Source: Bacillota bacterium (GTDB taxonomy: Bacteria > Bacillota > Clostridia > Acetivibrionales > DTU013). From it: a stretch of 64,000 nt of DNA. Shown in pieces: positions 24,949 to 45,605 of the stretch (positions within the stretch are counted from its first letter, which is position 1; every line of letters begins with the position of its first letter). The DNA lies in the NCBI GenBank assembly GCA_023435925.1, contig JAEZLF010000063.1:496-64495 (forward strand). The letters are read 5' to 3'. The translations under genes and the position numbers were made by a program. Below the pieces are notes generated by a model. That model saw only the letters and a program-made list of their open reading frames with translations. It did not search any database and was not told the origin of the DNA.

Positions 24949-26064
24949 ATGAGAATATCAAAAGAAGCACTGAGGGGATATTTATTGGAGGAAGCATTGG
25001 CTTATTTGATTAAGAATACAGGATATACGTTGTTGGTTGATAAAAGTCAAGACGAGAGAGAACTCCAAAAAAGAGGGAATGGACTTGTGGTTATTGGTAG
25101 AGGTGGGGAGCACCAAGTCGATGTTCTCGGACAGCTTTCATGGATACCAACATTTACTTTCCCAATAAGGCTTTTTATTGAGGCCAAATTCCGTAATGCA
25201 AAAACAGGGATAGATGTAGTAAGGAGTGCTGTAGGTATAATAGAAGACCTGAATCAAAATTTTTCACCTATGAGAGAAACAGGTATCTTGATTAAGCGAT
25301 ACAACTATAATTATGCTTTGTTTTCTACATCAGGATTTTCAAAGGACGCCATAAAGATGGCTATTGCTCATAGGATATCTTTAATAGATTTAAGTGGGCC
25401 TGAGTTCACCGATTTGAGAAATATGATAGAACAAGCAGCAAATAATATTATTCAGTATTATGCTACAAGAGAAGATGTTGCTGTAACTAATGATAACACA
25501 GTAGAAAACGAAGATGATTCCCTGTCTAGGAATAGTTTTATTACTCAATTGAGAATGTTCATAAGGCAGCAATTAAGAACTTTACCAGTAAGTGTAATAG
25601 AAAATCAGTATTGGAGAGGTCAAGATGAAGGTATATTGCTTGACAATTTTCTTGGCGAGTTAATTTCGTTCTTAAATCATTATAATGAACTATTTGTCGG
25701 AATGGCTAATGGACCGTTTATGTTGGTTCTTAAAGCAGATGATGTAAACGATTTTAGATCATATGTCGAAGAGTACCCGACTCATAAGGTTACAATTCAT
25801 TGGAGTGCCTATGATCATGGGGGTAGAAGATGGTATATTAGACCGGTAGATTACTATAATCGTAGATACCAACTTACGTTTACGTTACCAAAGATTTTAG
25901 GTGATTGGATATTTAAAAGTAATAATCCCATAAGCAAAGCGATAAACGCAAAGGAGAAGTATTTATCAAACATTACTATTTACCGTTCAAGTGAAGATAA
26001 AGATGAATTATATCGGCTTATTTATTCTGCTGAAGATACACAACGTCTAATAAATAATTTTTGA
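24949..26064 (+). CDS. Mrr-like (PD-(D/E)xK) restriction endonuclease domain protein with unknown C-terminal half
   Basis: The N-terminal 155 aa follow the Mrr_cat pattern: LEEALAYLIKNTGYTL, GGEHQVDVLG, LFIEAKF, GIDVVRSAVG, ALFSTSGFSKDAIKMA, ISLIDLSG. The C-terminal roughly 215 aa have no motif I recognise. Confidence 0.6.
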   Translation: MRISKEALRGYLLEEALAYLIKNTGYTLLVDKSQDERELQKRGNGLVVIGRGGEHQVDVLGQLSWIPTFTFPIRLFIEAKFRNAKTGIDVVRSAVGIIEDLNQNFSPMRETGILIKRYNYNYALFSTSGFSKDAIKMAIAHRISLIDLSGPEFTDLRNMIEQAANNIIQYYATREDVAVTNDNTVENEDDSLSRNSFITQLRMFIRQQLRTLPVSVIENQYWRGQDEGILLDNFLGELISFLNHYNELFVGMANGPFMLVLKADDVNDFRSYVEEYPTHKVTIHWSAYDHGGRRWYIRPVDYYNRRYQLTFTLPKILGDWIFKSNNPISKAINAKEKYLSNITIYRSSEDKDELYRLIYSAEDTQRLINNF

Positions 26065-26228: not shown

Positions 26229-29093
26229 ATGTTTAATTTTGGAAATGCAAATGATGGACAAAAACTTGCTATTTCGACCGTCGAGGGGCCGGTTTTAATA
26301 ACGGCAGGACCGGGTACGGGAAAAACCTATACCCTCGTTCAGCGTGCTATCTATTTGATTCAGGAGAAAGGCGTTCAGCCGGAGCGAATACTGATGGCAA
26401 CGTTCACCGAGAAAGCCGCCAAGGAGCTTGTAACCAGAATCACGAATGAACTCGCCGCTCGTGGCATCATTGTAAACATAAACGAAATGTATATTGGGAC
26501 GTTCCATTCCCTATGTCTGCGGATAATAAAAGAGCATCTCGAATATACCCGTCTCAAGAAAAACTACCGTACTTTGGACGACTTTGACCAGAGTTATACA
26601 GTGTTCCAGAGCATTCATAAGTTCCGCCACATCACCGGTTTTGATGGAGTGCTGTCGAACACCGGAGCATGGCGACAGGCAGGCGAAATATGTGAACTTG
26701 TAAACAACCTCTCTGAGGAATTAATAGACCCTGCTGATTTGAAATCAGACCCAGACCAGCAGATAGCTGCGTTGGGGAATATACTCGAAATCTATCAGGA
26801 GGTTCTCTTGGAGAATAACCTGATGGATTTCTCTGCTATTCAGACAGAGGCATACTGGCTGTTAAAAAACAACTCCTCAATCCTTGCCGAAATCCAGAAA
26901 CAGATTCAGTATGTAATGATAGATGAATACCAAGACACGAACTACATTCAGGAGCAGATAGTTTTTCTCATTGGCGGCAGTCACAATAATATCTGTGTAG
27001 TAGGCGACGATGACCAAGGTCTGTACCGTTTCAGAGGCGCAACTATCCGAAACATACTTGAGTTTCCATCAAAGTTCACCAAAGGAGAATGCAATGTCAT
27101 TCCACTTGTGGTGAACTATCGCTCGAACAGTGACATCGTGGATTTTTATAATAATTGGATGGTGACGACCGATGGTGCTCGGTTTCGCTTCCGATGGAAT
27201 AAGTTCCGTTATGACAAGACGATAGAGCCGCATGACAAATCCACCCTTAAAAGCCCAGCAGTTGTGAAGTTGGCGAGCGTGGAGGACGAGGAGGAATGGC
27301 GTGAGAAGATACTTTTGTTCATCTCCGAATTGATGAGTTCCGGGAAATTGAATGATTACAACCAGATAGCGTTCCTCTTCAACTCCGTAAAGCACGAGCG
27401 TGTCACAAGACTCGCCCGCTACTTAGAGGATAATGGAGTGAATGTCTATTCGCCGCGTTCAGATATGTTCTTTCAGCGGGACGAGATAAGGCTGATGATA
27501 GGTTGCCTGATGCTGATGTTCCCTAAATATGTTATAGGGCTTGAGCAAGAGCAATATCAGTTCCTCCAAACTGAGCACTATAAATACTACCGTGGCTGTG
27601 TAATGGCAGCAAACGCCTACCTTCAGAAGTCTGAATCGGCAGATCTCCGCAACTGGATACGTCGTCGCGGGAAAATTCATGCAAACCTGAAGGAAACGAC
27701 AGATTATGCATATTCAGGTCTGATTTACCAGATGTTTGAGTTCGCACCGTTTTCACACATCCTCGGTACAGATATACGTGTCGGTGTGGTAGATATACGC
27801 CCGGCTCGGAACATAGCGCTCTTTACACAGGTAGTCGGGAAATTCGAATATTTACACCGTATAGACGTTTTTAATACAAAATACATCGATATAAACACAG
27901 AGCGGTTCTTTAACCTTTATCTGAGGCTGCTATTCGACGGTGGTATCTCTGAGTATGAGGACGATGCGGAGTATGCTCCGAGCGGATGCGTTTCATTTCT
28001 GACGATTCACCAGTCGAAGGGAATGGAGTTCCCGATTGTATTCGTGGATTCACTTGGCAATATTCCCCGAAAAGCATATAAAGACCTCATTGAGGCTGTA
28101 GAAGATAAATACTTCAAACGCCCAGCGTTCGAACCATATGAGATGACGAAGTATTTTGACTATTGGAGGCTTTACTATACGGCGTTCTCTCGTGCTCAGG
28201 ATTTACTTGTCCTCACCTGCAACGAAGACAAGCGCACCCCGAGTATGTACTTTCGTGAGGTATATGAGGATTTATATGATGCAGATGGAGAAATGTTTGA
28301 CCTTTCCGAGTTTGATTTCAAAGGAGTGAAGAACGTTAATCTAAAAGCTACTTTCTCTTTCACCTCCCACATCACCGTCTACGAAACCTGCTCGCTTCAG
28401 TATAAGTTCTATAAAGAACTGGAATTCGCACCTGTTCGTGTGAACGCTATGTTATTTGGTATGCTTGTTCATCAGACGATTGAGGACATTCACCGTGCTG
28501 CACTCCGGCATGCGGAACACCTAATCAGCCCCGAGAACATCATAGGATGGTTCGATACGAACTACACATCACTCACAAAGAGCGAGCGGACCTACCTTGC
28601 AGAGCCGCAAAAGAATGCCGCCCTGCAGCAGGTACTTCGCTATGCGGAGCGGCAGGAAGGCCAATGGCATACGTTGAAGGATGCCGAGGTGGATGTGAGC
28701 CTTGTGAAGCCTGACTATATAATTGAGGGCAAGATTGACCTAATAAAGGGCGAGGGGGACACAGTTGAACTTGTAGACTTCAAGTCCGAGAAGAAGCCTG
28801 ATATTTTTAAAGATGCGGAGCAACTCGAACACTACCGCCGACAACTTCGGGTATATGCTCACCTCGTGGAGGAGCGGACAGGCCAGAAGGTCAGCAAGAT
28901 GCATCTTTATTACACTGGGGAGGATGGTGGAGTTCCGACTATCAGCTATCCGTATCAGAAGACTGTAGTGGATGCGACGATTCAAGCTTTCGATGATACT
29001 GTTCATAAAATCCTGAGGAAAGAATATGGACAGAGGTCTTCCTCTCCGAAGACATGCAGAGATTGCGATTTCCGTTTCTATTGTGGTAAGTAA
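26229..29093 (+). CDS. UvrD/PcrA-family SF1 helicase fused to a RecB/Cas4-type nuclease with Cys cluster
   Basis: Helicase motifs: AGPGTGKT, MIDEYQDTN, VVGDDDQGLYRFRGA, NYRSN, TIHQSKGMEFPIVFV, YYTAFSRAQDLLVL. The C-terminal nuclease has an early Cys (YETCSLQY), IDLIKG...VELVDFKSEK, QLRVYAHL and a terminal CRDCDFRFYC. Confidence 0.85.
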   Translation: MFNFGNANDGQKLAISTVEGPVLITAGPGTGKTYTLVQRAIYLIQEKGVQPERILMATFTEKAAKELVTRITNELAARGIIVNINEMYIGTFHSLCLRIIKEHLEYTRLKKNYRTLDDFDQSYTVFQSIHKFRHITGFDGVLSNTGAWRQAGEICELVNNLSEELIDPADLKSDPDQQIAALGNILEIYQEVLLENNLMDFSAIQTEAYWLLKNNSSILAEIQKQIQYVMIDEYQDTNYIQEQIVFLIGGSHNNICVVGDDDQGLYRFRGATIRNILEFPSKFTKGECNVIPLVVNYRSNSDIVDFYNNWMVTTDGARFRFRWNKFRYDKTIEPHDKSTLKSPAVVKLASVEDEEEWREKILLFISELMSSGKLNDYNQIAFLFNSVKHERVTRLARYLEDNGVNVYSPRSDMFFQRDEIRLMIGCLMLMFPKYVIGLEQEQYQFLQTEHYKYYRGCVMAANAYLQKSESADLRNWIRRRGKIHANLKETTDYAYSGLIYQMFEFAPFSHILGTDIRVGVVDIRPARNIALFTQVVGKFEYLHRIDVFNTKYIDINTERFFNLYLRLLFDGGISEYEDDAEYAPSGCVSFLTIHQSKGMEFPIVFVDSLGNIPRKAYKDLIEAVEDKYFKRPAFEPYEMTKYFDYWRLYYTAFSRAQDLLVLTCNEDKRTPSMYFREVYEDLYDADGEMFDLSEFDFKGVKNVNLKATFSFTSHITVYETCSLQYKFYKELEFAPVRVNAMLFGMLVHQTIEDIHRAALRHAEHLISPENIIGWFDTNYTSLTKSERTYLAEPQKNAALQQVLRYAERQEGQWHTLKDAEVDVSLVKPDYIIEGKIDLIKGEGDTVELVDFKSEKKPDIFKDAEQLEHYRRQLRVYAHLVEERTGQKVSKMHLYYTGEDGGVPTISYPYQKTVVDATIQAFDDTVHKILRKEYGQRSSSPKTCRDCDFRFYCGK

Positions 29094-29115
29094 TTAGCTT
29101 GGAGGTCTTTTAATA

Positions 29116-31170
29116 ATGGCAGAACAACTTACTTTTGAATTTAATGAACGTCCAACGATAAAGGGCTTTCCTGAACTGCGTTGGACGGGAAAACGCCCAT
29201 ATCGCTCTACGCAATATTTCCCTGCGCAGCTTCGTGAGCGGTACGGTGAGGAACAGGACGGGTGGATTAATAAGATTTACTGGGGTGATAACCTCCAAGT
29301 GATGAGTCATCTTCTAAATGAGTTTCGTGGTAAAGTTGACCTTATCTATATTGACCCACCATTTGATTCCAAAGCGGACTACAAGAAAAAGATTTCGCTC
29401 CGTGGACAAACTGTCACTAGTGATAGTTCTTCGTTCGAGGAAAAACAATACGGTGATATTTGGACAAACGATGAGTACCTCCAGTTTATGTATGAACGGC
29501 TTATCATTTTGCGTGAATTGCTATCAGAAACAGGTAGCATCTATTTGCATTGCGATTATCACAAAAATCAATATCTTCGTTGCCTTCTTGATGAGGTTTT
29601 CGGGATGGATAATTTTATTAATGAAATAACTTGGAAAAGGCGTGGAGGTGCACTGAACAACTTTAAGTCTTTAGGGCAACTTACTGACACTATTTACTTG
29701 TATTGCAAGAATAATGGTACGTATAAATTTAATGCGATAAAAACAAAAGATACCCCCGAAGTTCAAGAGTATATCAGACAGAGATTCGTCTACGATGATG
29801 GAGATGGCAGAAAATATAGTCGCGACCCCGTGACAAATCCCTCAGCTACGGCTACTCCGTCATTGATTTACGAATATAAAGGCTATCAGCCTCCTGAAAA
29901 AGGGTGGGCATTTTCTCGTCAAACTATGGAGGAATGGGATGCCAAAGGGAAACTCTATTTCCCGCCAGAAAAAACCCAGAGAATACGGCGTAAAACGTTC
30001 CTTGATGACTATGAAGGGCAACCCCTTCAAAATTACTGGGGAGACATTTATGTTATCAATTCACAAGCAAAGGAATCCCTGGCTTACCCAACTCAAAAAC
30101 CTGAAGATTTGCTTGACCGTATAATTCGCATAAGTTCCAACCCCGGAGACCTTGTTTTCGACTGTTTTATGGGCAGTGGCACGACGCAAGCCGTTGCTAT
30201 GAAACTGGGGCGACGTTTCATTGGTGCAGACATTAACCTTGGGGCTATACAAATCACAACGAAACGCCTCATCTCCCTTGCTGTCGAGTTGCGGACTACT
30301 GAGCCAGAGCAACTAACGATGATTGCGAGCAATAAGAAAGAAAAATTGAGTAAAATCGAGTATACTACTGAACACGGCTATGCTTCGAGGGCTGCCGAGG
30401 AATCAGGTAAATATCTTGGAGATAATGAGGAGAACGAAGAAACAGAAAGCACTGTTCTGACCGAAGCTATGCCGTTTACCAGCTTTGAGGTATACAATGT
30501 TAACAATTACGAGTTCTTTCGCAACCCCGTCGAGGCTCGCGATCTCCTGATTGATGCCTTAGAGATTCAGTCTTTCCCTCAGCGTGATGTGTGGGATGGT
30601 GAACTGGACGGGCGTATGGTAAAGATTATGCCTGTCAACCGAATCGCAACTAAAGCTGACTTGGAAGAACTCAAGGCGAATCTACCATATAAAACATATG
30701 AGAAGCGAAAAGATGAGAACCCAAACCAACCAGTGGAGAGGATTACGATTGTATGTATGGGCCACGAGCCTGACTTGAAGGCTTCCCTTGAAAAGGCACT
30801 CTCCGAATATAAACTCGACATCGAAATTGTCGATATTCTTCGCGATAAGGCAGACCTCCAACTGAAACGTGAGTCAGAGGCAGACATAGCCATCGAGGAC
30901 GGTCGGCTTGCTATCCGTGCGTTCTATCCGCTGAACCTAATGCAGAAGCTGTCCCTCCAGAAGGAGTATGTGGAAGATTGGCGCCAGCTCGTCGAGTCCG
31001 TAATGATTGACTGGAACTATGACGGAGTTGTCATGCAGCCGACGGTGACTGATGTGCCAGGAAAGAAGAATATTGTGAAAGGTATCTATGACATCCCTGA
31101 AGGAGTTGGAACAATTAAGGTAAAGATAACTGACTTACTCTCCGAGTCTTTGGAAACAGAGGTGAGATGA
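29116..31170 (+). CDS. mod: Type III restriction-modification methyltransferase (Mod), beta-class
   Basis: Motif IV DLIYIDPPFDS lies near the N-terminus and motif I FDCFMGSGTTQAVAMKLGRRFIGADIN about 270 aa later. This IV-TRD-I order is typical of Type III Mod. The stop overlaps the res start. Confidence 0.85.
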   Translation: MAEQLTFEFNERPTIKGFPELRWTGKRPYRSTQYFPAQLRERYGEEQDGWINKIYWGDNLQVMSHLLNEFRGKVDLIYIDPPFDSKADYKKKISLRGQTVTSDSSSFEEKQYGDIWTNDEYLQFMYERLIILRELLSETGSIYLHCDYHKNQYLRCLLDEVFGMDNFINEITWKRRGGALNNFKSLGQLTDTIYLYCKNNGTYKFNAIKTKDTPEVQEYIRQRFVYDDGDGRKYSRDPVTNPSATATPSLIYEYKGYQPPEKGWAFSRQTMEEWDAKGKLYFPPEKTQRIRRKTFLDDYEGQPLQNYWGDIYVINSQAKESLAYPTQKPEDLLDRIIRISSNPGDLVFDCFMGSGTTQAVAMKLGRRFIGADINLGAIQITTKRLISLAVELRTTEPEQLTMIASNKKEKLSKIEYTTEHGYASRAAEESGKYLGDNEENEETESTVLTEAMPFTSFEVYNVNNYEFFRNPVEARDLLIDALEIQSFPQRDVWDGELDGRMVKIMPVNRIATKADLEELKANLPYKTYEKRKDENPNQPVERITIVCMGHEPDLKASLEKALSEYKLDIEIVDILRDKADLQLKRESEADIAIEDGRLAIRAFYPLNLMQKLSLQKEYVEDWRQLVESVMIDWNYDGVVMQPTVTDVPGKKNIVKGIYDIPEGVGTIKVKITDLLSESLETEVR

Positions 31171-33836
31171 TGTCTATTGAAACAACTGACAATTTTGCTT
31201 TTTATGAACAATTAAAATACTACTATCAGGTAAACCGCCGAAAAATCCGCTCACGGTATAATGAACTGACGAGGAAGTTCCTTGCATATAATGACCGTGA
31301 GGAGAACCCAACAGCATTTCTACGTCTACCACAATTTGAAGCCCTGGAGATTTATATCTTTATTAAGGAGTTTATGGGAAATGCGCAGGTCTATGAAATG
31401 TTCGATGATTGGCGCAACCGCCGTGACAGGTTTGCGGATGCTTCTTATTACGCTGTCAATAGGGATGGGCAGTACACGATTTTTGATTTCGTCCAGACAA
31501 TGAGTGGGAAGACTGTATTCTTGCCCGGAGCGGTCGAGAAGCAGACCGATATTCTCTTTAAACAGATGAAGAAATATACAGAGAAATACCCAAACTACAT
31601 CTACGCTCTGACGATGGGGTTGGGGAAAACCATACTGATGGCGACTTGTATATTCTATGAGTTTCTTTTAGCATACAAATATCCTAAAGATAAACGGTTT
31701 TGCCACAATGCACTTATATTCGCCCCTGATAAGACTGTCCTTCAGTCGCTACGCGAAATTATCACGTTCGACAAGACGAAGGTCGTGCCACCGGAATATG
31801 CGAGGGTACTCGATGCTAACATAAAGTTTCATTTTCTCGAGGATAGTGGGACGACGCTTCATACACTTGACGCTTCCGATTTCAATATTATTATCTCGAA
31901 TACACAAAAGATTATAGTAAAGAAGAAGCGCAAAGAAGATAAGCCAGCCGACGTCTTATTTAATCAAGGTTCACTTCTATCCTCTGTATATAGTGGGAAT
32001 GATGAGGACGATGATGTCAATGATGATTCCACTCTGATGGAAAATCAGCGTTTCAAGAAGCTATGCCGTCTCAATCAGCTTGGTGTATATGTGGACGAGG
32101 CGCACCACCTATTTGGTGCAGATTTGGAGAAACAGATACGCTCCACAAGCGGTCAGAAAACGAGTCTTCGCGATACTATCAATATGCTTGCTGACAGCAC
32201 GTCAATTGTTGCCTGCTATAACTACACCGGAACACCTTATGTGAATAAACAGCTTTTACCGGAAGTTGTTTACGCATATGGCTTAAAGGAGTCAATCCAA
32301 AACGGTTTCCTTAAGGACGCCGACCTGAAAGCATTTGATAATATTAAGAGCAAGGAGTTCCTACGCACTGTTATCACAGCCTTCTGGGGGAAATACGGTT
32401 GTAGAATGTTTGAAGGTTTGCCACCTAAACTGGCGATTTTTGCAACGACAATAAAAGAAGCTGATGAGGAGGTTCGCCCGATTGTGGAAAAAATTCTCGC
32501 CGACTTGGGCGTACCATCTTCAAAGATACTGGTAAACGTCGGTGATGAGAAGATAACAAAGAACGAGGATATTCGGAATTTCAATGACCTCGATGTACCG
32601 GGGACAATCGGCAGCCAGAAACAGATACTCATTCTTGTAGGCAAAGGACGTGAGGGATGGAACTGCCGTTCGCTTTTTGGAGTTGCGATGTACCGGAGCC
32701 CACAGTCTAAAATATTCGTCCTCCAAGCGACGATGCGCTGTCTGCGCAAGATTACCTCCGAGCAGTTGACAGCCACAGTGTTCCTCTCAAAAGAGAACTA
32801 CGACATCCTTGATGATGAACTCAATAAGAACTTCAATATGGAAATCAAGGACATGTCAAAGTCTAGTGGTGACAAGCCGCAGCGTTATAAGGTCAGGTTT
32901 ATTCCACCGCAGCAGAAGATAAAGCTGAAACGTATTTCACATGAGTATACACTTTTCGAAAAGGGCTATACAGCGCCGATAGATTTTGAGCTTAAAGGTG
33001 CGGATTTCTCAAAATACGCCGCCGTGATGTATGAGAAACATAGTATCTCCAACGACATGAGTGTTAAGGAGATGAATATCGACCATTTAAAAGAGCGGAT
33101 GCGTTATAGTGCGTTTTCTCTCGCTGGCGAGATTGCTCGCTATCTGAACATCTCCTGTATCCTTGCAGCTCGGATTGTGAGGGAGTCAAAAGATGGGGAG
33201 AAAGCTGTTCTTGAAACTGTAAATAAATATAACGAAATCCTTGATGATATGATTATCCCACGGATATTCCACACCATTTTTGAGGTTTCAAGTAATATAA
33301 AGACAGAGGACTACGAACTAATCCTTCTGAAAGAGCCAAAAGAAGGTGGATATTTCGAATTTTCCGCAAAACCCGAACTTGTTGTGAAGAACACTGATAC
33401 ACAGTTTAAACCCAGCGAGTTGATTAAGAGCTTCCATGCTGATACCTACTGTTTTGACTCGAGGCCAGAGAAGGAGTGCTTCCTCCAGTATGTGTCAAGT
33501 GAAAAGGTCAAAAAGGTGTATTTTACCGGGATGTTCACGAGTAAACAAGGTGACCTTTCGATACAGTATTACGACCCCGAATCCAGAAGAATCCGTCAAT
33601 ACTACCCCGACTTTTTCGCTGAAATGGCAGACGGTTCCTACCAACTTATAGAGGTCAAGGGTGATGATAAAATTGACGATGCAGTAGTAAAAGCAAAAGC
33701 AGATGCTGCGCGTGAAATAGCAGTTCAAAGTGGTATTGAGTATAGGATGTATGCAGGGAGTGAACTGATGAAAAGAAATGTGCTTAATAAAGCTTTAGAG
33801 TCATACATCTCACCAGGTCTTGGGGGTAAACGATGA
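31167..33836 (+). CDS. res: Type III restriction enzyme Res subunit (SF2 helicase + C-terminal PD-(D/E)xK)
   Basis: Motifs LTMGLGKTILMA, VYVDEAHHLFG, GKGREGWNCRSL and the C-terminal nuclease motif YYPDFFAEMADGSYQLIEVKGDDK. There is an ATGA-type overlap with mod (31167-31170). Confidence 0.8.
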   Translation: MMSIETTDNFAFYEQLKYYYQVNRRKIRSRYNELTRKFLAYNDREENPTAFLRLPQFEALEIYIFIKEFMGNAQVYEMFDDWRNRRDRFADASYYAVNRDGQYTIFDFVQTMSGKTVFLPGAVEKQTDILFKQMKKYTEKYPNYIYALTMGLGKTILMATCIFYEFLLAYKYPKDKRFCHNALIFAPDKTVLQSLREIITFDKTKVVPPEYARVLDANIKFHFLEDSGTTLHTLDASDFNIIISNTQKIIVKKKRKEDKPADVLFNQGSLLSSVYSGNDEDDDVNDDSTLMENQRFKKLCRLNQLGVYVDEAHHLFGADLEKQIRSTSGQKTSLRDTINMLADSTSIVACYNYTGTPYVNKQLLPEVVYAYGLKESIQNGFLKDADLKAFDNIKSKEFLRTVITAFWGKYGCRMFEGLPPKLAIFATTIKEADEEVRPIVEKILADLGVPSSKILVNVGDEKITKNEDIRNFNDLDVPGTIGSQKQILILVGKGREGWNCRSLFGVAMYRSPQSKIFVLQATMRCLRKITSEQLTATVFLSKENYDILDDELNKNFNMEIKDMSKSSGDKPQRYKVRFIPPQQKIKLKRISHEYTLFEKGYTAPIDFELKGADFSKYAAVMYEKHSISNDMSVKEMNIDHLKERMRYSAFSLAGEIARYLNISCILAARIVRESKDGEKAVLETVNKYNEILDDMIIPRIFHTIFEVSSNIKTEDYELILLKEPKEGGYFEFSAKPELVVKNTDTQFKPSELIKSFHADTYCFDSRPEKECFLQYVSSEKVKKVYFTGMFTSKQGDLSIQYYDPESRRIRQYYPDFFAEMADGSYQLIEVKGDDKIDDAVVKAKADAAREIAVQSGIEYRMYAGSELMKRNVLNKALESYISPGLGGKR

Positions 33837-34798
33837 GTTTATTATATAAAACGGAGTATGGAAAATATTATGTAGGTAAGTGTGAGCAGATGATTCGCAG
33901 ACTGAAACTAAATGGAAAAGTCCAGCTTATCTTGACATCTCCTCCATTTCCCCTTAACAATAAGAAACAATATGGGAATTTAACGGGTGAAGACTATCTA
34001 AGATGGTTTAGTGGTCTTGCAGAGTTATTCTCAAGTGTTTTAACACCTGACGGTTCTATTGTTATTGAGTTGGGTAATGCATGGGAAAAAGGAAGACCAG
34101 TTCAGTCATTGCTAAATCTTAAATCTTTAATGAGCTTTGTTTCAAATGAGCGAGCTGGACTGCGCCTTTGTCAGGAGTTTATATGTTATAATCCAGCGCG
34201 CTTACCTTCCCCAGCACAATGGGTCACTATAAATCGAATCCGTGCAATAGATAGCTTCACTCATGTATGGTGGATGGCAAATTCAGATTATCCGAAGGCA
34301 GATAACAAGAAAGTGTTACGTCCCTATAGCAAAAGTATGAAAAAATTACTAAGAACACAAAAATTTAATGCCGGTAAAAGACCATCAGAGCATGTAATAA
34401 GTAAAGAGGCATTCTTAAAAGATAATAGTGGGAGTATTTCACATAATGTCTTGGAATTGGCGAATCCAGATGCTAATGAGGAACAGCGCCAACCTCATTC
34501 GATGTTTAGTATATCCAATACACAATCAAACGACTTCTTTACAAGGACCTGCAAGGAGCGAAATATCACTCCTCATCCAGCGAGAATGCCACTTGAATTA
34601 GCAAGTTTTTTTATTGAATTTCTAACTGACCCAGGCGATTTAGTCCTTGACCCTTTTGGTGGAAGTAATACCACAGGATTTTGCGCAGAACGGGCAAAGC
34701 GCAAGTGGATAAGCATAGATGCAAGCGAAGAATATGGAGAACAGTCGATTATTCGGTTTGAAGACCCAACAATAGAAACCCAAATTAAGAGGAGGTAG
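33833..34798 (+). CDS. stand-alone beta-class DNA methyltransferase (SPPF motif IV; N4-C or N6-A)
   Basis: Motif IV is LILTSPPFPLNN (aa ~33-44) and motif I is DPFGGSNTTGFCAERAKRKWISIDAS (aa ~280). The ATG overlaps the res stop (ATGA at 33833-33836). Confidence 0.85.
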   Translation: MSLLYKTEYGKYYVGKCEQMIRRLKLNGKVQLILTSPPFPLNNKKQYGNLTGEDYLRWFSGLAELFSSVLTPDGSIVIELGNAWEKGRPVQSLLNLKSLMSFVSNERAGLRLCQEFICYNPARLPSPAQWVTINRIRAIDSFTHVWWMANSDYPKADNKKVLRPYSKSMKKLLRTQKFNAGKRPSEHVISKEAFLKDNSGSISHNVLELANPDANEEQRQPHSMFSISNTQSNDFFTRTCKERNITPHPARMPLELASFFIEFLTDPGDLVLDPFGGSNTTGFCAERAKRKWISIDASEEYGEQSIIRFEDPTIETQIKRR

Positions 34799-34804
34799 AT
34801 ATGA

Positions 34805-36808
34805 ATGGGACTCACACAAGAAGTTAAAAATCTTGCTACCGTGGACATATTCCAAGAAGCCAAGAAGCCGGATATGTTTATTGGCAGACCATTTTACCTT
34901 GATTTTGAAAAAGCATACTTGTTAATTACAGATGCGTGGAAAGAAAGGGTTGGGGGTATTCCGCAGGGAACTTTTCTACTTGCTTTTTATGAAAATGAAA
35001 ACGATGACATTGATGAATGCCTTTTACTTAGAGCAATAAGACCTGCGAAGTTGCCGACTGATAATGATGTTATTGCATCTATGGTCGAATATTATAAAGA
35101 TAATTTAAATACCTCAGGCAAAAAGAATCAGCTTGATGACTTTACAAAATACACCTTCAGTTTTTCGGGTCTGGAATGTCGGGTTTTGGGCACTTTCTTT
35201 AGAGACGAAGCAGATAAAATTCAGTTTGGAGCCGATGTGGAAAATTATTATAGCGCACATAACTATGTAGCCTACAAACCTATTGGTAATGTTCTCGAGC
35301 AGATAGTAAACTTCAGGGATGGCAATTCCATTGGGAGCTCTACAGATTATCGGATCGGGAAGATAAGATACAGTTCAAGCCGTCGTTTTCAGGAAAAGCA
35401 TGCGGATGTGCCTGTATATATAAGCCCAAGTGATTTTTTGGGCAAACGTACCGCACTTTTTGGTATGACGAGAACTGGAAAATCAAATACTGTAAAGAAG
35501 ATAATTGAATCTACGACTGAAATAAGCAATAAAGCAAAATCTACTTCTGTTGCAGCAAATTTAGTTGATGCTACGGAAGTTATAATGCAATTTGAGGATA
35601 ATGGATTGCCTAAATATAAAGTAGGACAAATTATCTTCGATATGAATGGCGAATATGCCAATGCAAATTTACAAGACGAGGGGACGGCAATCTTTGAAAA
35701 ATATAAAAGTATAACGACAAGATATAGTGTGCTTGATAAGCCTGATTTTAAGGTACTAAAAGTAAATTTTTATAAAGAAATATCAGTAGGCTTTGAACTG
35801 ATCTGCAGCCTTCTTGCAGATGAAGGCGGTGATTACATAAAAAGCTTCCTTGCGGTTGACTTACAAGAACCTGACATAAATAATAGGTCAGCTCATACCC
35901 GTTGGCTACGTAAGGCTGCTGCCTATCAATGTTGCCTGAAAGCAGCAGGATTTACTGTACCGAAGAATCATAGGGTTAGCTTCACAGGGAATAAGGAGAT
36001 AAATGATAAGATTATCACGGGAAAAGTAATTGACCCCTCCAGTGGAATTAACTTAGAAGATGCAACTGCTTTTTGGACATGGGTTGCTGAACATCAAGAC
36101 GACAATTTTTTTGCAAATTACAAAAGCAGTAATGGTCATGATTGGGTTGATGAAGATTTGAAGGCGATCTTAGTTTTCTTAACTCGTAAGCGAGATTTAG
36201 GCAGAAACGTAAATATAACTGGTTACCGCAAATTGGTGCCACTACTAGATTACCATACAATAAATTCTGACTCTCCTTTTGAAATAGATATTGTTAACCT
36301 ACTCCGTCAAGGTCAAATAGTAATTGTTGATTTGTCTCAGGGCGATCCGATTATACAGCAAACTTTTGCAGAAAAAATCTGTGTAAGCGTTTTTAGAAAT
36401 GCGATGGATAATTTCGTAAAAACAAAACCGAATAATTTTATTCAATTTTATTTTGAGGAAGCCCACAACCTTTTCCCTCATAAAGAAGATAAAGATTTAA
36501 GTAGAATTTATAACCGCATTGCAAAAGAAGGGGCCAAGCTCAATATTGGTTTAATTTATGCTACCCAAGAAGTTAGTTCAATATCCTCAAACATATTAAA
36601 AAATACCCAAAACTGGTTTATCGCTCACCTTAATAATGAGGATGAACTTAAGGAAATTCGTAAATTCTACGATTTCGCTGACTTTTGTGACAGCTTAATC
36701 AGATATAGCTCGGGAAGCGATAAAGGCTTCATTCGTATGAAGACATACTCCAACGCATTTATTGTACCGGTGCAGATTGATAGGTTTACAGCACAAGGGG
36801 GTAATTGA
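34805..36808 (+). CDS. HerA/FtsK-superfamily (DUF87-like) ATPase
   Basis: Walker A is ALFGMTRTGKSNTVKKI and the Walker B region is FIQFYFEEAHNLFP. The HerA-like distal block is GLIYATQEVSSISSNILKNTQNWFIAHLNNEDE. An AGGAGG RBS is present, and the gene starts 6 nt after the methyltransferase. Confidence 0.7.
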   Translation: MGLTQEVKNLATVDIFQEAKKPDMFIGRPFYLDFEKAYLLITDAWKERVGGIPQGTFLLAFYENENDDIDECLLLRAIRPAKLPTDNDVIASMVEYYKDNLNTSGKKNQLDDFTKYTFSFSGLECRVLGTFFRDEADKIQFGADVENYYSAHNYVAYKPIGNVLEQIVNFRDGNSIGSSTDYRIGKIRYSSSRRFQEKHADVPVYISPSDFLGKRTALFGMTRTGKSNTVKKIIESTTEISNKAKSTSVAANLVDATEVIMQFEDNGLPKYKVGQIIFDMNGEYANANLQDEGTAIFEKYKSITTRYSVLDKPDFKVLKVNFYKEISVGFELICSLLADEGGDYIKSFLAVDLQEPDINNRSAHTRWLRKAAAYQCCLKAAGFTVPKNHRVSFTGNKEINDKIITGKVIDPSSGINLEDATAFWTWVAEHQDDNFFANYKSSNGHDWVDEDLKAILVFLTRKRDLGRNVNITGYRKLVPLLDYHTINSDSPFEIDIVNLLRQGQIVIVDLSQGDPIIQQTFAEKICVSVFRNAMDNFVKTKPNNFIQFYFEEAHNLFPHKEDKDLSRIYNRIAKEGAKLNIGLIYATQEVSSISSNILKNTQNWFIAHLNNEDELKEIRKFYDFADFCDSLIRYSSGSDKGFIRMKTYSNAFIVPVQIDRFTAQGGN

Positions 36809-38151
36809 AAGTGAGTTATGGAAATGAATATTCCAGTAAGCCTTTTGAAAGGGCCAGTAAAACCGCACATACAAACATAATTAACGACAAAGAAGTGCAA
36901 GCCTTTCTTACGAAGTGTAAGATACCACCCTATCAAGATGATGTTGATAGCGAAGATATGGAGATGCGTTTTCTTAACCCTCTTGCCCTAAATCCAATCA
37001 AAAACGTTGTTACCATAGATGGCGGATATACGAATATTTTTATAAAAGAGGATTTCCCATCATCCACCATTGCTTTTTTTCAGTTTGGAGCATTGTTTTT
37101 CAAGCATCAGGATTTATTTGATTTGAAGGTTAAGCCTTTTATTGACCCTGATGATTTTTCAAAACTACAAAAAATTCAGAGGATTAAACTGGTTGTGCCG
37201 ACCAAAGGAGTAGCTTTGGACGGAGAAATTGATTTAATAAGTTCTGTGAGAAAGTCAATATATGATTTTTTCTGTTCGCAGCCGGAACGGAACGGATTCA
37301 TATCTGCATTAAAATGGTTGCTCTTTGAGGAATACGATACTTCTGTTAAGAATTCTATTTGGCACTTGGCTTCTTGCCCATATTGCCAGGAAGGTGCAAA
37401 TATAAACAAATTGGATATTACACCAGCATATACAATTATTTGTCCTCATTGCAGCGGAACCATTTATTTAACTGATGTGTTTCGGCTTCATGAAGCGATT
37501 GACAACGAACTTGGAGCGGGAGGCATTCTTGGTTACTTATCTACGACTGTCGAACAAATAATTATTGTGTTTCTCATCAAACAAATGATTTCTATACGAC
37601 CAAGCCTCCTATCCGAAACGTTATTCATAAAAGATGGTCCGCTTGCATTTTACGGTCAAACTGCAAATATTCATAAGCCTATGAGAAAACTGATTACCTA
37701 CCTAAATAAGTTTCACAGCATATACATGGTCGGTTTAGAAAAAAGTGGATCTTTCGTTGAACATGCAGAACAAGTATCAAAGAAAATGAAGCAAAAACAA
37801 ATCCTGTTGTTGGGCAATAAATATATTTATAAGTATATCATTCCAGGCCAAGCAAAAGACAATGAACCCTATGCGAGTTCAACATATTATGGCCATAAGG
37901 TTATCTTTAAATCTGAATATGATAATGTTTATGTTGCTACTGTCCCTAGTTTGCAACCACAGTGTGAACCCAAAGTAGATGATTATATACATCTACATGA
38001 AACACTTTATAATGTAAGCGCTCTAAAATGCGACTTGTACTATAACTCACTTGTTCCAATAGTTTTAGCCAATAAGTTGGTATCTCTCGCTGACCATCCA
38101 AGCGCAGATGTATTAAAAGCTTTTGCTCAAAACAAAATAACCAACTATTAA
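36805..38151 (+). CDS. NurA-like nuclease with inserted zinc ribbon (putative)
   Basis: The spacing resembles NurA: VVTIDGGYTNIF, then LFIKDGPLAFYGQ, then MVGLEKSGSF. CPYCQEG...CPHCSG lies between them. The TTG start overlaps the ATPase stop (TTGA at 36805-36808). The fold assignment is by eye only. Confidence 0.5.
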   Translation: MKVSYGNEYSSKPFERASKTAHTNIINDKEVQAFLTKCKIPPYQDDVDSEDMEMRFLNPLALNPIKNVVTIDGGYTNIFIKEDFPSSTIAFFQFGALFFKHQDLFDLKVKPFIDPDDFSKLQKIQRIKLVVPTKGVALDGEIDLISSVRKSIYDFFCSQPERNGFISALKWLLFEEYDTSVKNSIWHLASCPYCQEGANINKLDITPAYTIICPHCSGTIYLTDVFRLHEAIDNELGAGGILGYLSTTVEQIIIVFLIKQMISIRPSLLSETLFIKDGPLAFYGQTANIHKPMRKLITYLNKFHSIYMVGLEKSGSFVEHAEQVSKKMKQKQILLLGNKYIYKYIIPGQAKDNEPYASSTYYGHKVIFKSEYDNVYVATVPSLQPQCEPKVDDYIHLHETLYNVSALKCDLYYNSLVPIVLANKLVSLADHPSADVLKAFAQNKITNY

Positions 38152-38246: not shown

Positions 38247-38768
38247 ATGAATAAGATACCAAAAGATTTTATAGCATTTGACTTGGAAACCACAGGATTT
38301 GCCCCTCCGTGCAAAATCATTGAAATTGGTGCTGTCAAAGTGCTAAACGGCAATATAGTCGAGCAAGTCCAGACTTTTGTTAATCCGTGTTCTGCAATTC
38401 CCAAGCATATCACAGACATTACCGGCATTAATCAAATGATGGTTGATAAAGCTCCTAAAATAGAAGATGCATTACCGATGTTCATTCATTTTATTGAGTT
38501 TTTCCCTATAGCCGCTCATAATGCTTCTTTTGATATGAAGTTTATACGGTCTGAAGCAAATAAGTTGGGCTACTCCGTAAGAAACCAGGTAATTGATACG
38601 CTTACCTTAGCCCGAAGGCATTTTCCGAGATTAGATAATCATAAACTGAATACTGTTGCCCGACATATAGGTGTGATAAATCAGAATGAACATAGAGGCC
38701 TTTATGATGCTATGGTTGTCGCCGAGATTTTATTGAAGATATCTCTCAATGATGAACAGGTAGGTTAG
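38247..38768 (+). CDS. DEDDh 3'-5' exonuclease (DnaQ/epsilon-like)
   Basis: ExoI is FIAFDLETTG, ExoII is AHNASFDMKF and ExoIII is HRGLYDA (H-x4-D). Confidence 0.85.
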   Translation: MNKIPKDFIAFDLETTGFAPPCKIIEIGAVKVLNGNIVEQVQTFVNPCSAIPKHITDITGINQMMVDKAPKIEDALPMFIHFIEFFPIAAHNASFDMKFIRSEANKLGYSVRNQVIDTLTLARRHFPRLDNHKLNTVARHIGVINQNEHRGLYDAMVVAEILLKISLNDEQVG

Positions 38769-38933: not shown

Positions 38934-39296
38934 AAAAATCCTAAGGAGATTCCACAATGCCAACCACCCACTATAACAAACTAATCCGTGACAAAATCCC
39001 TGAAATTATTGAAAAATCCGGTAAAAAACCAATCACAGAGATACTTGATGCCGAGGCCTATAAAAAGCACCTTGACCTAAAACTCAGCGAGGAGCTTCAA
39101 GAATATCTTAATGACGATAATATCAATGAGTTGGCTGATCTGGTTGAAGTGATTTATGCGATCCTAAAACATAAGGGTATTGAGCTGGACGATTTTGAGC
39201 AAGTTCGAAAAAGGAAGGCAGAGGAGCGGGGAGCATTTGATAAGAGGCTGTTGCTAAAAGAAGTCAGAGACTAAATCATGAGTTATTGTCAGACAG
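38934..39296 (+). repeat. 363-bp direct repeat, copy 1 (MazG-like gene plus first 21 nt of the downstream helicase gene)
   Basis: It aligns colinearly, with substitutions only, to 41422-41784. Both copies end at ...TAAATCATGAGTTATTGTCAGACAG. Confidence 0.9.
38957..39274 (+). CDS. MazG-like all-alpha NTP pyrophosphohydrolase (copy 1)
   Basis: 105 aa. The N-terminus YNKLIRDKIPEII and the acidic metal-binding helices SEELQEYL and ELADLVEV match small MazG/phosphoribosyl-ATP-PPase-like proteins. Confidence 0.7.
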   Translation: MPTTHYNKLIRDKIPEIIEKSGKKPITEILDAEAYKKHLDLKLSEELQEYLNDDNINELADLVEVIYAILKHKGIELDDFEQVRKRKAEERGAFDKRLLLKEVRD

Positions 39297-39371: not shown

Positions 39372-40049
39372 TTGAGCGGTTTGACAGAAAAGTATGTTCA
39401 GGATGTTTCTTTGGAATTCCTTAAAAAGTATTATGAGGATAAGGACAAACCTGAAAAGATCTTTTGTAAAAAAGAAGTGGTGACCAAATATAAAAAGCGA
39501 AAAGGAAGAGCGGATGGGTTAATTGCTTATAAGAATGGAAATCAGATTTATACTGTGTCATTGGAAGCAAAGTCGCATAAAACATATGATACCCTGATTG
39601 CAATATATAATGATAAATTGTGGTTATTGATTGGTTTCATAGTTGCTTGCATTATTTTTGCTTTCTCCATTTTTTTACTTTGGCAGTTAAATTGGATTAT
39701 CAAGATGGTTATTTCTTTATCTGTAGGGACATTATTTGGGTTTGCAGCAATGTTTCTTATAGATGAAAAAGGATATTTGAATAGGCATGGGATTATTGAA
39801 CAAGTAAGAAGATATCCTGCCAATGAACGGTGGATTGCTTTTTCATATGATGCTTATAGCTTTTTCGATAAGCAAAATGAACATGAATTAAAGATTCGTG
39901 CTAAAAGATATGGAATCGGCATCATAATTGTCAGCAAATCAAGAAAGGCTTATATTGAACTGCATGCTAAAGCAAGTAACATGAAGGGAAAAATGAATTT
40001 TCTAAAATACTATTCAGCAGCAGACAGTATTGAAAAATCTATAAATTAG
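39372..40049 (+). CDS. hypothetical membrane protein with PD-(D/E)xK-like motif split by a TM hairpin
   Basis: TTG start behind GGAGGG. GRADGLIAYK...YTVSLEAKS forms a D...EAK pattern. Two or three TM helices follow (LWLLIGFIVACIIFAFSIFLLW, MVISLSVGTLFGFAAMFLI), then a soluble tail ending in RYGIGIIIVS. Confidence 0.4.
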   Translation: MSGLTEKYVQDVSLEFLKKYYEDKDKPEKIFCKKEVVTKYKKRKGRADGLIAYKNGNQIYTVSLEAKSHKTYDTLIAIYNDKLWLLIGFIVACIIFAFSIFLLWQLNWIIKMVISLSVGTLFGFAAMFLIDEKGYLNRHGIIEQVRRYPANERWIAFSYDAYSFFDKQNEHELKIRAKRYGIGIIIVSKSRKAYIELHAKASNMKGKMNFLKYYSAADSIEKSIN

Positions 40050-40100: not shown

Positions 40101-40877
40101 ATGATAATGAATAATCTATCATCAATTTATAGTTACAAATATAGACAAATTATGATATTATTAAGTATATTGATTAGTGTAAATAAGTTTATATGGGGAA
40201 GGTTCTCTATGGGTAATGATGGTATTGATATTTATGAATTTGCCTATAAATTAAGCTATAAAAAAGATAAACGTAAGCTTTTCGTGATAGGGCTTGGAAT
40301 TATATATTCATTTGATTTGATATTCTTCTTAATTCTTAAAAACGTTATAAAAATAAATTCCATCATTAGTTTTCTTATTATTTTTGTATCCATCTGTACG
40401 TACCCATTTTTAATTGGGATAATAAGATCTTTCTTCCCATTTCATGAAAGAAAGATTGAAAATAAGAAGTTAGGTGAATCTTCAAAAGCTATTGAGGATG
40501 CTATAAAGAATTATTTCAATGAATCATTTGTAGATCAAAATGACATAGTATGTCGTGCAAAACAAGCGAGTGCGTATTTAATTAATACAGGAATAATTAT
40601 TTCTGATTTGCAGAAAGAGATGGAAGAAAGAAATAGAGCACTTGAGAGCTTGTTATCAACCATTGAGACAAGGAAACAAGATGCTGAGTATTACGCCCAA
40701 TTAGCAGCTTTAAATGAGCAATTAGCAGCGCCCTTGATGAAAGAGATTGAAAAAGTCATAAGAAATGAGTTCGAGCTAAAAGAAAAACAAAAAAGAGTGT
40801 TTAATATTCTTATTTGGATAGTTACCTTAATTGCGGGTGGAATTGTAGGGGTATTATTTCAAATATGGTTTTCATAA
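40101..40877 (+). CDS. hypothetical membrane protein with coiled-coil segment
   Basis: It has 2-3 N-terminal TM helices, a central helical E/K/Q-rich region and a C-terminal TM helix. A likelier start is ATG 40209 (MGNDG), behind GGGGAAGG. Confidence 0.4.
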   Translation: MIMNNLSSIYSYKYRQIMILLSILISVNKFIWGRFSMGNDGIDIYEFAYKLSYKKDKRKLFVIGLGIIYSFDLIFFLILKNVIKINSIISFLIIFVSICTYPFLIGIIRSFFPFHERKIENKKLGESSKAIEDAIKNYFNESFVDQNDIVCRAKQASAYLINTGIIISDLQKEMEERNRALESLLSTIETRKQDAEYYAQLAALNEQLAAPLMKEIEKVIRNEFELKEKQKRVFNILIWIVTLIAGGIVGVLFQIWFS

Positions 40878-41421: not shown

Positions 41422-41784
41422 AATAATCTTGAGGAGATTATAATATGCCCACGATCCACTACAACAAACTTATCCGCGACAAAATCCCTGAAATTATCGA
41501 AAAATCCGGCAAAAAGCCGATTACAGAAATACTTGATGCCGAAGCCTATAAAAAGCACCTTGACCTAAAACTCAGTGAGGAGCTTCAAGAATATCTTAAA
41601 GACGATGATGTCAATGAGTTGGCCGATCTGGTTGAGGTGGTTTATGCGATCCTGAAACACAAAGGCATTGGGCTGGACGATTTTGAGCAGATCCGTAGAA
41701 AGAAGGCAGAGGAGCGGGGAGCATTTGATAAAAGGCTGCTGCTAAAAGAAGTCAAAGACTAAATCATGAGTTATTGTCAGACAG
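41422..41784 (+). repeat. 363-bp direct repeat, copy 2
   Basis: See copy 1. In this copy the helicase reading frame continues intact beyond the repeat. Confidence 0.9.
41445..41762 (+). CDS. MazG-like all-alpha NTP pyrophosphohydrolase (copy 2)
   Basis: 95 of 105 residues are identical to copy 1. The stop lies 3 nt before the helicase ATG. Confidence 0.7.
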   Translation: MPTIHYNKLIRDKIPEIIEKSGKKPITEILDAEAYKKHLDLKLSEELQEYLKDDDVNELADLVEVVYAILKHKGIGLDDFEQIRRKKAEERGAFDKRLLLKEVKD

Positions 41785-45448: not shown

Positions 45449-45605
45449 ATGGCGCAGTATTTAGTTGAACGATACTCAGAAATGATAAAAAGTATTGATA
45501 AAGCAAATTTGAGAATACGAAATGAAAACAATAAGCGAAAATGAGACCTCCTGGCTTACTTCCCCTGCGAGTACAAAATTTCATTTATGGAAGGGGAATC
45601 TGTAA
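45449..45605 (+). pseudogene. frameshifted 5' fragment of a paralogous YhaM-type HD gene
   Basis: One frame reads MAQYLVERYSEMIKSIDKAN...; the next frame reads ENETSWLTSPASTKFHLWKGNL*. This is colinear with residues around 15-60 of the 44184 gene (ENETTWLTSPASTKYHLCKEGGL). It is cut off where the next gene begins. Confidence 0.55.

Follow-up and report, generated by a model that had tools for sequence, protein, structure and literature searches.

Do three tightly packed genes for a DNA methyltransferase, a HerA/FtsK-type ATPase and a NurA-like nuclease form a single defence system? This question is raised by positions 33833–38151 of a 64,000-nt stretch of DNA from a Bacillota bacterium (henceforth referred to as the ‘window’; all coordinates are positions in that stretch), where the three genes lie in this order on the + strand (henceforth the ‘trio’). 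The initial annotation of the window, made from its letters alone, had read the trio as a restriction-like module, and our analysis partly supports this: judged from synteny and homology, the trio is probably (at a rough probability of 0.58) a self-contained, mobile defence module of the restriction-modification (R-M) type and the methylation counterpart of TdpABC, an R-M system based on phosphorothioate (PT) modification. The features of the trio are:

33833–34798, + strand: DNA methyltransferase, 321 amino acids (aa), beta-class, M.PvuII family (Pfam, PADLOC and PDB matches)
33938–33949, + strand: motif IV of the methyltransferase, SPPF (aa 36–39)
34649–34675, + strand: motif I of the methyltransferase, DPFGGSNTT (aa 273–281)
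34805–36808, + strand: HerA/FtsK-type (TdpA-like) ATPase, 667 aa (Pfam, PADLOC, PDB sequence and Foldseek matches)
35462–35485, + strand: Walker A of the ATPase, GMTRTGKS (aa 220–227)
36446–36469, + strand: Walker B of the ATPase, FYFEEAHN (aa 548–555)
36811–38151, + strand: NurA-like (TdpB-like) predicted nuclease, 446 aa from GTG 36811 (448 aa from TTG 36805), assigned by structure and family
37015–37026, + strand: IDGG of the nuclease with candidate catalytic D70, which is invariant in 74 sequences
37375–37452, + strand: four-cysteine zinc ribbon (CPYC ... CPHC), an insert in the NurA-like fold
37471–37494, + strand: TD(V/L)(F/L)RLHE of the nuclease, invariant, after the zinc ribbon
37630–37644, + strand: KDGPL of the nuclease with candidate catalytic D275; D275-G276 is at least 90% conserved
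37738–37752, + strand: GxEKSG motif of the nuclease (EKSGS), at least 90% conserved

The trio makes up the final three genes of a six-gene co-directional array (26229–38151) with successive gaps of 22, −4, −4, 6 and 2 nt. The methyltransferase ATG at 33833 overlaps the stop codon of the preceding gene (ATGA, 33833–33836), and the methyltransferase stop codon (34796–98) is followed by a 6-nt gap and the ATPase ATG at 34805, with AGGAGG at 34790–95, 9 nt before this start. The ATPase gene ends in a TGA (36806–08) that is overlapped by a TTG at 36805. The open reading frames (ORFs), their coordinates, the ATGA overlap and the 6-nt gap are as claimed in the initial annotation, and all the motifs it quoted (SPPF, DPFGGSNTT, GMTRTGKS, FYFEEAHN, IDGG, KDGPL, EKSGS, CPYC and CPHC) are present. 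The same annotation began the nuclease gene at TTG 36805; the overlap exists, but GTG 36811 is the more likely start, because GGGGG (36797–801) lies 9 nt before it, and only 3 nt before the TTG, and because public protein collections carry the 446-aa form. With either start the ATPase and nuclease genes abut. A promoter scan of the region gave a count no higher than in shuffled sequence, and additional terminator-like sites did not bound the operon.

The first protein of the trio matches Pfam N6_N4_Mtase (E=3.6e-32) and the PADLOC model MTase_II PDLC03323 (E=5.5e-88), and aligns over its full length (residues 5–315) with M.PvuII (PDB 1boo_A, E=3.5e-72), in agreement with the beta-class methyltransferase recognised at the outset. 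The catalytic motifs of this M.PvuII-family protein are intact. An SPPF motif IV is typical of N4-cytosine methyltransferases, and the protein is predicted, from its motifs, to be probably an enzyme of that kind. It is also the best conserved member of the trio, with a mean identity of 69% compared to 67% and 57% for the other two.

The second protein scores 51.5 bits against Pfam PF01935 (DUF87, HerA central domain; cut-off 23.2 bits), and its C-terminal half matches many PADLOC HerA models (best 1.2e-20). It falls below the NCBIfam equivalog cut-offs for ‘anti-phage-associated HerA’ (48.7 vs 800 bits) and for ‘DSB repair HerA’, the double-strand break repair subfamily (33.3 vs 970 bits), and is, by these scores, a member of neither subfamily. 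Its Walker motifs GMTRTGKS and FYFEEAHN, which are invariant among 33–37 homologues, lie ~320 aa apart, and the N-terminal ~190 aa are strongly conserved. When PDB sequences were searched, TdpA (8wet_A) was the best match (3e-17), followed by SIR2-HerA (1e-9) and Thermococcus HerA (2e-9). A predicted model of the monomer, made from an alignment of homologues at at least 63% identity and of moderate quality (predicted local distance difference test score, pLDDT, 60.7), gave the same order in Foldseek: the best six matches were all TdpA chains (E=1e-16 to 2e-14, best 1.4e-16), after which came defence HerAs and archaeal HerAs. The domain, PADLOC, PDB sequence and structural matches are all in keeping with the FtsK/HerA-type ATPase of the initial annotation.

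The third protein itself has no match in Pfam, PADLOC, NCBIfam, PHROGs or PDB sequences, and because these direct searches gave nothing its identity came only from structure and from distant family members. It belongs to a family of 2389 clusters at 90% identity (E<=1e-3), or at least 676 clusters at 50% identity. Its AlphaFold2 model has a pLDDT of 93.7, and the top 10 Foldseek matches in the PDB are all NurA-family proteins (E=7e-10 to 1e-3; template-modelling score 0.3–0.5), led by TdpB (8wfd_G, 7.1e-10) and followed by NurA of D. radiodurans, T. kodakarensis, S. solfataricus and P. furiosus, together with TM1739. Pfam NurA (PF09376) is matched by 13 of 74 aligned family members (best E=8.5e-26), so that homology of the window nuclease to PF09376, which it does not itself match, is suggested transitively, through these relatives. 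On the strength of the model, the protein is predicted to have the RNase-H-like NurA fold, as the initial annotation had supposed from motif spacing. Candidate catalytic residues are D70, D275 and E248, the last being at least 90% conserved among the 74 sequences (22–79% identity). A profile of the family aligns with TdpB (E=0.0056), with VDGG and FIKDG(R/P)LA brought into register. The putative zinc ribbon falls within a region of short beta-strands in the model (aa 183–219); its cysteines and the D222 column are kept across the family at 24–80% identity, and the Pfam matches of canonical NurA proteins leave this insert uncovered.

The distribution of the three genes indicates that they form a unit. 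We sampled 88 loci from genomes and metagenomes (nuclease identity 45–84%), in which the contig left room for the ATPase at 62 loci and for the methyltransferase at 54. The ATPase gene lies directly upstream of the nuclease gene at all 62, and the pair is also adjacent in five of five plasmids. An M.PvuII-like methyltransferase gene lies directly upstream of the ATPase gene at 50 of the 54 loci, and some methyltransferase adjoins the pair at 53: of the remaining four, two carry a related methyltransferase immediately downstream of the pair, a third carries a permuted type upstream (a different, 598-aa N6_N4 methyltransferase) and in the last none was detected. Since this order of genes is met again in dozens of unrelated contigs, the arrangement is not due to chance. 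Moreover, over 46 loci the three proteins rise and fall together in their identity to the window copies (r=0.93–0.96), which indicates that the three genes are co-inherited. Petrotoga mobilis (Thermotogota) and Acutalibacter muris (Clostridia) carry the same three genes together at 69–83% identity in unrelated surroundings, with transposases in one and AbiEii, ParA and recombinases in the other, and more widely, relatives at 69–81% identity occur across Clostridia, Thermotogota (Petrotoga) and Spirochaetota with unrelated flanks, near transposases or AbiEii. The trio is thus a conserved, horizontally mobile unit, and the co-occurrence outside this genome anticipated by the initial annotation is common in other genomes and metagenomes.

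This distribution also bears on whether the trio serves in housekeeping resection of double-strand-break ends, the classical role of HerA-NurA. Some homologues are labelled ‘DNA double-strand break repair nuclease NurA’ by NCBI, the predicted fold matches repair NurA proteins, and the trio shares with canonical HerA-NurA of S. solfataricus, P. furiosus, T. kodakarensis and D. radiodurans both folds, the adjacency of the two genes and a likely hexamer-dimer architecture. However, the trio is patchily distributed and horizontally transferred (about 70–80% identity across phyla), occurs in defence islands, on plasmids and in the accessory region of a prophage, has a methyltransferase and not Mre11/Rad50 as its linked partner, and resembles TdpAB more closely than it does repair HerA/NurA. 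Because of this mobility, this context and the closer kinship to TdpAB, we regard a housekeeping repair role as extremely improbable.

The ATPase and the nuclease each match a Tdp protein first, and do so independently, so that both point to the same solved complex, TdpAB (PDB 8wet, 8wfd and 8y1k, of which 8wfd includes DNA), which forms the restriction part of the TdpABC system of extremophilic bacteria (An et al. 2025, Nat Chem Biol, doi 10.1038/s41589-024-01832-w). TdpABC has been described as the third R-M system to be based on PT, the modification being made by tdpC alone. As in the trio, the genes of a hexameric HerA-like ATPase (TdpA) and a NurA-fold nuclease (TdpB) adjoin each other, in the order A then B, and are accompanied by a single modification gene, and TdpA6-TdpB2 is the closest solved structure for both window proteins. 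The two ATPases share F(L/V)G(K/R)RTAxFG.T..GKSN at Walker A, EEAHN and AKEGxKxxIGxxYxTQ at Walker B and the wide spacing between the two motifs, and VDGG and FIKDG(R/P)LA are common to the two nucleases. In contrast to TdpABC, the modification gene of the trio encodes an M.PvuII-family methyltransferase and not the PT-forming TdpC, and the window nuclease is ~70 aa longer, owing its zinc ribbon to an insert; no Dnd-, Ssp-, TdpC-like or other PT-related domains were found among the scanned window neighbours. Sequence identity is only ~12–20%, and the resemblance to TdpAB is therefore one of family and not of orthology. The trio is not itself a Tdp system, though by analogy it plausibly works like one.

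An et al. are reported to have found in 2025 that TdpA holds self DNA less tightly when it carries PT, and that translocation and cleavage then stop. If the trio works in a comparable way, the methyltransferase would mark host DNA, probably with N4-methylcytosine (N4mC) at a short motif; the ATPase would assemble into a hexameric ring and feed double-stranded DNA to a dimer of the NurA-like protein, which would degrade it processively. Methylated self DNA would be spared if methylated sites stop loading or translocation, or alternatively through a dedicated reader, for which the N-terminal region of the ATPase, its ~320-aa insert and the zinc ribbon of the nuclease are candidates. Unmethylated incoming phage or plasmid DNA would be shredded.

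Distant relatives of the pair (24–32% nuclease identity) still carry a methyltransferase, although of another class:

L091, 1309–5750: distantly related HerA/NurA pair (24% identity) together with a Dam-class methyltransferase, between integrase and excisionase, in the temperate Vibrio phage 10N.286.55.C4_PE001 (PQ189371)
L090, 3126–6924: permuted N6_N4 methyltransferase with HerA-NurA, on the Deferribacter desulfuricans megaplasmid pDF308

In the Vibrio prophages the methyltransferase is of the D12/Dam class and lies on the opposite strand, with the HerA/NurA pair in the int-xis accessory region, a slot that is the usual place for defence cargo in temperate phage. This is the only phage-borne case found; viral collections gave no relatives in a pattern scan of IMG/VR and no structural match in BFVD. 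On pDF308 the DUF87/HerA gene is split by an IS200/IS605 element (tnpA, tnpB), and the methyltransferase and nuclease genes are intact. In a haloarchaeal plasmid, an annotated ‘DNA methyltransferase’ lies downstream of the HerA/NurA pair. The association is thus kept while the methylase is replaced by non-orthologous ones, which argues for functional dependence and against an accident of neighbourhood.

How the methyltransferase would exert its influence can be read in a second way, in which it is itself the recognition subunit, binding unmethylated sites and recruiting or licensing HerA-NurA much as Mod does Res in Type III systems. Neither the ATPase nor the nuclease has a recognisable sequence-specific DNA-binding domain, and the methyltransferase, besides being the best conserved of the three, co-varies tightly with them, is encoded first and is translationally coupled. 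However, in distant relatives the methyltransferases belong to unrelated classes and differ in position and orientation, which is easier to reconcile with a self-mark that diffuses than with a subunit that docks; there are, in addition, Nostocales variants (see below) without any adjoining methyltransferase. We consider such a Type III-like arrangement unlikely.

Several observations weigh against a methylation-gated R-M module. No base-methyl reader domain was identified in the trio proteins, and a motor that tracks the DNA backbone may sense PT, while its sensing of N4mC is not obvious. The ATPase model is poor where a reader might have been sought, with residues 1–177 unmodelled. Of the 6-bp palindromes in the window, CAGCTG (the PvuII site) is the one most strongly depleted (11 observed vs 20.4 expected, z=−2.1), but in the pooled flanks of the 54 trio loci its avoidance ranks only 15th of 64; a CAGCTG-type recognition site deduced from palindrome avoidance was therefore rejected, the weak window effect being absent from the pooled flanks. 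An operon of Thermus with the same parts has been assigned experimentally to DNA donation, as discussed below. Finally, the one locus among the 54 at which no methyltransferase was detected (metagenomic locus L087) is joined by three Nostocales plasmids in which a gene for an XRE helix-turn-helix (HTH) protein of 82 aa occupies the methyltransferase position, with no adjoining methyltransferase:

L089, 4658–8335: XRE HTH, DUF87 and NurA genes, Nostoc plasmid
L093, 4681–8357: XRE HTH, DUF87 and NurA genes, Tolypothrix plasmid
L094, 4680–8360: XRE HTH, DUF87 and NurA genes, Calothrix plasmid

The pairs on these plasmids are 60–62% and ~50% identical to those of the window. An AbiTii-domain gene comes after the pair on the Nostoc plasmid, and exonuclease genes lie downstream of it on the Tolypothrix plasmid. 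Together with L087, these plasmids indicate that the pair can exist without a linked methylase and that the linkage is not obligatory; they may represent a branch of the family that is under the control of a regulator or independent of methylation.

The Nostocales pairs, with a regulator gene in place of the methyltransferase, would suit a defence that does not depend on methylation at all, in which HerA-NurA attacks free ends or replication intermediates (in the manner of RecBCD or of archaeal resection) and is held in check by regulation, the methyltransferase being an orphan, anti-restriction or epigenetic enzyme that merely travels along. Canonical HerA-NurA does act on DNA ends. However, the adjacency of a methyltransferase at 53 of 54 loci, its replacement by unrelated classes and the tight co-variation of the three proteins (r=0.93–0.96) are hard to explain without functional dependence, and we judge methylation-independent defence to be distinctly improbable.

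The window is chromosomal, with glycine-cleavage genes, a lipoate ligase, tRNAs and a beta-galactosidase, and the trio lies in a region (~24.9–49.4 kb) that is, by its gene content, a chromosomal defence island rich in restriction-type genes. The other features of this island are:

24949–26064: weak Mrr_cat-like nuclease, at the left edge of the island, where GC is low (33%)
26229–29093, + strand: UvrD helicase with a PD-(D/E)XK nuclease (Pfam and PADLOC)
29116–31170, + strand: Type III-like Mod (Pfam and PADLOC)
31167–33836, + strand: Res, a ResIII helicase with a TnsA-like nuclease (Pfam and PADLOC)
38247–38768: DEDDh (RNase T-like) exonuclease (PADLOC PDC-S48 and a Cas-associated DEDDh model)
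38957–39274 and 41445–41762: MazG/PRA-PH-like protein of 105 aa, in two ~90%-identical copies
41766–44054: Type IV-like helicase with an MTES_1575 nuclease, abutting the second MazG/PRA-PH-like copy
45587–46588: REase-ARP/PDDEXK_13 protein
within ~24.9–49.4 kb: a further ResIII helicase

The DEDDh exonuclease gene starts 95 nt past the NurA-like gene and is not kept beside the trio elsewhere. Between the MazG/PRA-PH-like copies lies a 2.2-kb segment with the genes of two proteins without a family match (39372–40049 and 40101–40877). A survey of the window ORFs of at least 150 aa revealed no integrase, recombinase, relaxase or conjugation genes; nor was any att-like context seen, though repeats flanking the island were not searched for.

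The three genes immediately upstream of the trio deserve separate consideration. The initial annotation had described a module of three genes, and the trio does recur as a unit; what had been overlooked is that a UvrD-nuclease and a Type III-like Mod/Res pair are fused to it here. The same UvrD/Mod/Res block stands upstream of the trio at two other loci (L003, 1–4921, and L010; 66–89% identity), but does not accompany the trio in Petrotoga, Acutalibacter or the majority of other loci, and because of this absence we treat it as a separate module (26229–33836) that has probably become fused to the trio here. Its GC content is 43–46%, compared to 36–39% for the trio, and its junction gaps are 22, −4 and −4 nt. 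A single system of five or six genes including UvrD/Mod/Res was rejected as the default, as the trio stands alone at most loci and the GC content differs. At two further loci (L086, 4768–10377, and L030, 1697–3067) a UvrD-nuclease version at 33–36% identity lies directly downstream of the trio, and at L086 a Mod-like gene (37% identity) is found downstream as well. This recurrence at deep divergence may reflect a functional link, or simply a frequent companion in defence islands. The Mod proteins of the window (29116–31170) and of L003 (333–2267) are >85% identical at both ends and unrelated over residues ~180–300, which looks like a swap of the target-recognition domain and hence a change in the specificity of the Type III-like system.

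A restriction system upstream of a methylase, a motor and a NurA-like nuclease recalls the operon TTC1877–1880 on ICEth1, an integrative and conjugative element (ICE) of Thermus thermophilus HB27; in this operon the gene of a Type IIG R-M enzyme is joined by those of a NurA-like protein, of TdtA (a HerA/FtsK ATPase) and of an N4/N6 methylase (PMC5365140, PMC7767461). Knock-outs of the first three of these genes abolish or strongly cut DNA donation (‘transjugation’), and the methylase is nearly dispensable (PMC5365140, PMC7767461). Going by the published description of its parts, the Thermus operon resembles the trio in its NurA-like protein, its hexameric HerA/FtsK ATPase, its pfam01555 N4/N6 methylase and its adjoining restriction enzyme; all four genes are co-transcribed and lie on a mobile element, and the same parts list is met in the window, L003 and L010. 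It differs in gene order (restriction enzyme, NurA, TdtA and methylase there; methyltransferase, HerA and NurA here), in the length of the methylase (410 aa there, 321 aa here), in having an integrase and att repeats where the window ORFs of at least 150 aa include no integrase, and in its assigned function, DNA export.

Could the trio, then, serve DNA donation, with a restriction enzyme cutting donor DNA, the NurA-like protein and HerA/FtsK processing and exporting it and the methylase playing a minor part? The genetics of ICEth1, obtained with the same parts, speak for this, as does the Type III-like Mod/Res system fused upstream of the trio in the window, L003 and L010. However, the window ORFs surveyed (at least 150 aa) include no integrase, relaxase or conjugation genes, an adjoining restriction enzyme is absent at most trio loci, and the gene order is not that of Thermus; the methylase is nearly dispensable in Thermus as opposed to an almost invariant methyltransferase linkage here, and TdpAB, which among solved structures is the nearest relative, has been described as a restriction module. 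Because ICE features are lacking here and the methyltransferase linkage is near-invariant, we consider donation less likely than restriction and, overall, very unlikely.

Among known defence systems, SIR2-HerA (Nezha) and DUF4297-HerA also use a HerA-type ATPase as scaffold or motor of an effector and supply second-tier structural and PADLOC matches, but their effectors are SIR2 or DUF4297/Cap4-like proteins and not a NurA-fold nuclease, they have no modification gene, and they act by abortive infection instead of self-marking. PADLOC detected no SIR2, DUF4297 or other mad partners among the neighbours, and the window ATPase itself gave only generic, partial matches to HerA and to mad8 of the MADS system. 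The PvuII Type II R-M system shares with the trio a methyltransferase homologous over its full length, which PADLOC would call MTase_II; in the trio, however, there is no R.PvuII-like PD-(D/E)XK endonuclease and no C-protein, the neighbours being Res, HerA-like and NurA-like proteins. Type III and other ATP-dependent R-M systems combine, like the trio, a modification enzyme with an ATP-driven restriction part, and Type III-like Mod and Res are encoded directly upstream of it; the motor of the trio is, however, a predicted HerA/FtsK ring translocase (of the additional strand catalytic glutamate, ASCE, type) and not a superfamily 2 (SF2) helicase, and its nuclease has the RNase-H-like NurA fold in place of PD-(D/E)XK.

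The initial annotation had not recognised the trio as a named system. PADLOC-DB 2.0 indeed holds no relevant model for the window nuclease or its 73 relatives (74 family members searched), and we found no account in the literature of a methyltransferase-HerA-NurA defence system, an earlier in-silico mention in older comparative genomics being possible. TdpABC and the ICEth1 operon nevertheless make the trio less unprecedented than had been supposed, and because these two exist it is not a new category. A broader reading, which we hold tentatively and at somewhat less than even odds, is that a widespread, unnamed class of R-M systems exists in bacteria, archaea, plasmids and prophages, whose restriction arm is a processive shredder made of a HerA ring and NurA and in which base methylation would halt the motor or deny it entry instead of shielding a site from cleavage. 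TdpABC would then be the PT branch of a modification-gated HerA-NurA superfamily, of which the Thermus operon is perhaps a member. If so, the mark would be N4mC or N6-methyladenine (N6mA) depending on the methyltransferase recruited, and the donation phenotype of Thermus may be a by-product of the processing of self DNA.

Overall, the trio is widespread, accessible to experiment and at present mis-annotated, its genes being listed separately as an ‘orphan Type II methyltransferase’, a ‘DUF87’ protein and a ‘hypothetical’ protein or ‘NurA repair nuclease’. If confirmed as an R-M-type module, it would add a common methylation-based system to the known defence systems and would join archaeal HerA-NurA repair, PT-dependent restriction by TdpAB and Thermus transjugation, which are now separate literatures; the mechanistic question would become how a ring translocase distinguishes methylated from unmethylated DNA. 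Such modules would act as barriers to transformation in Clostridia, Thermotogota and gut anaerobes, and the trio methyltransferases could be used to pre-methylate DNA and so gain genetic access to these organisms.

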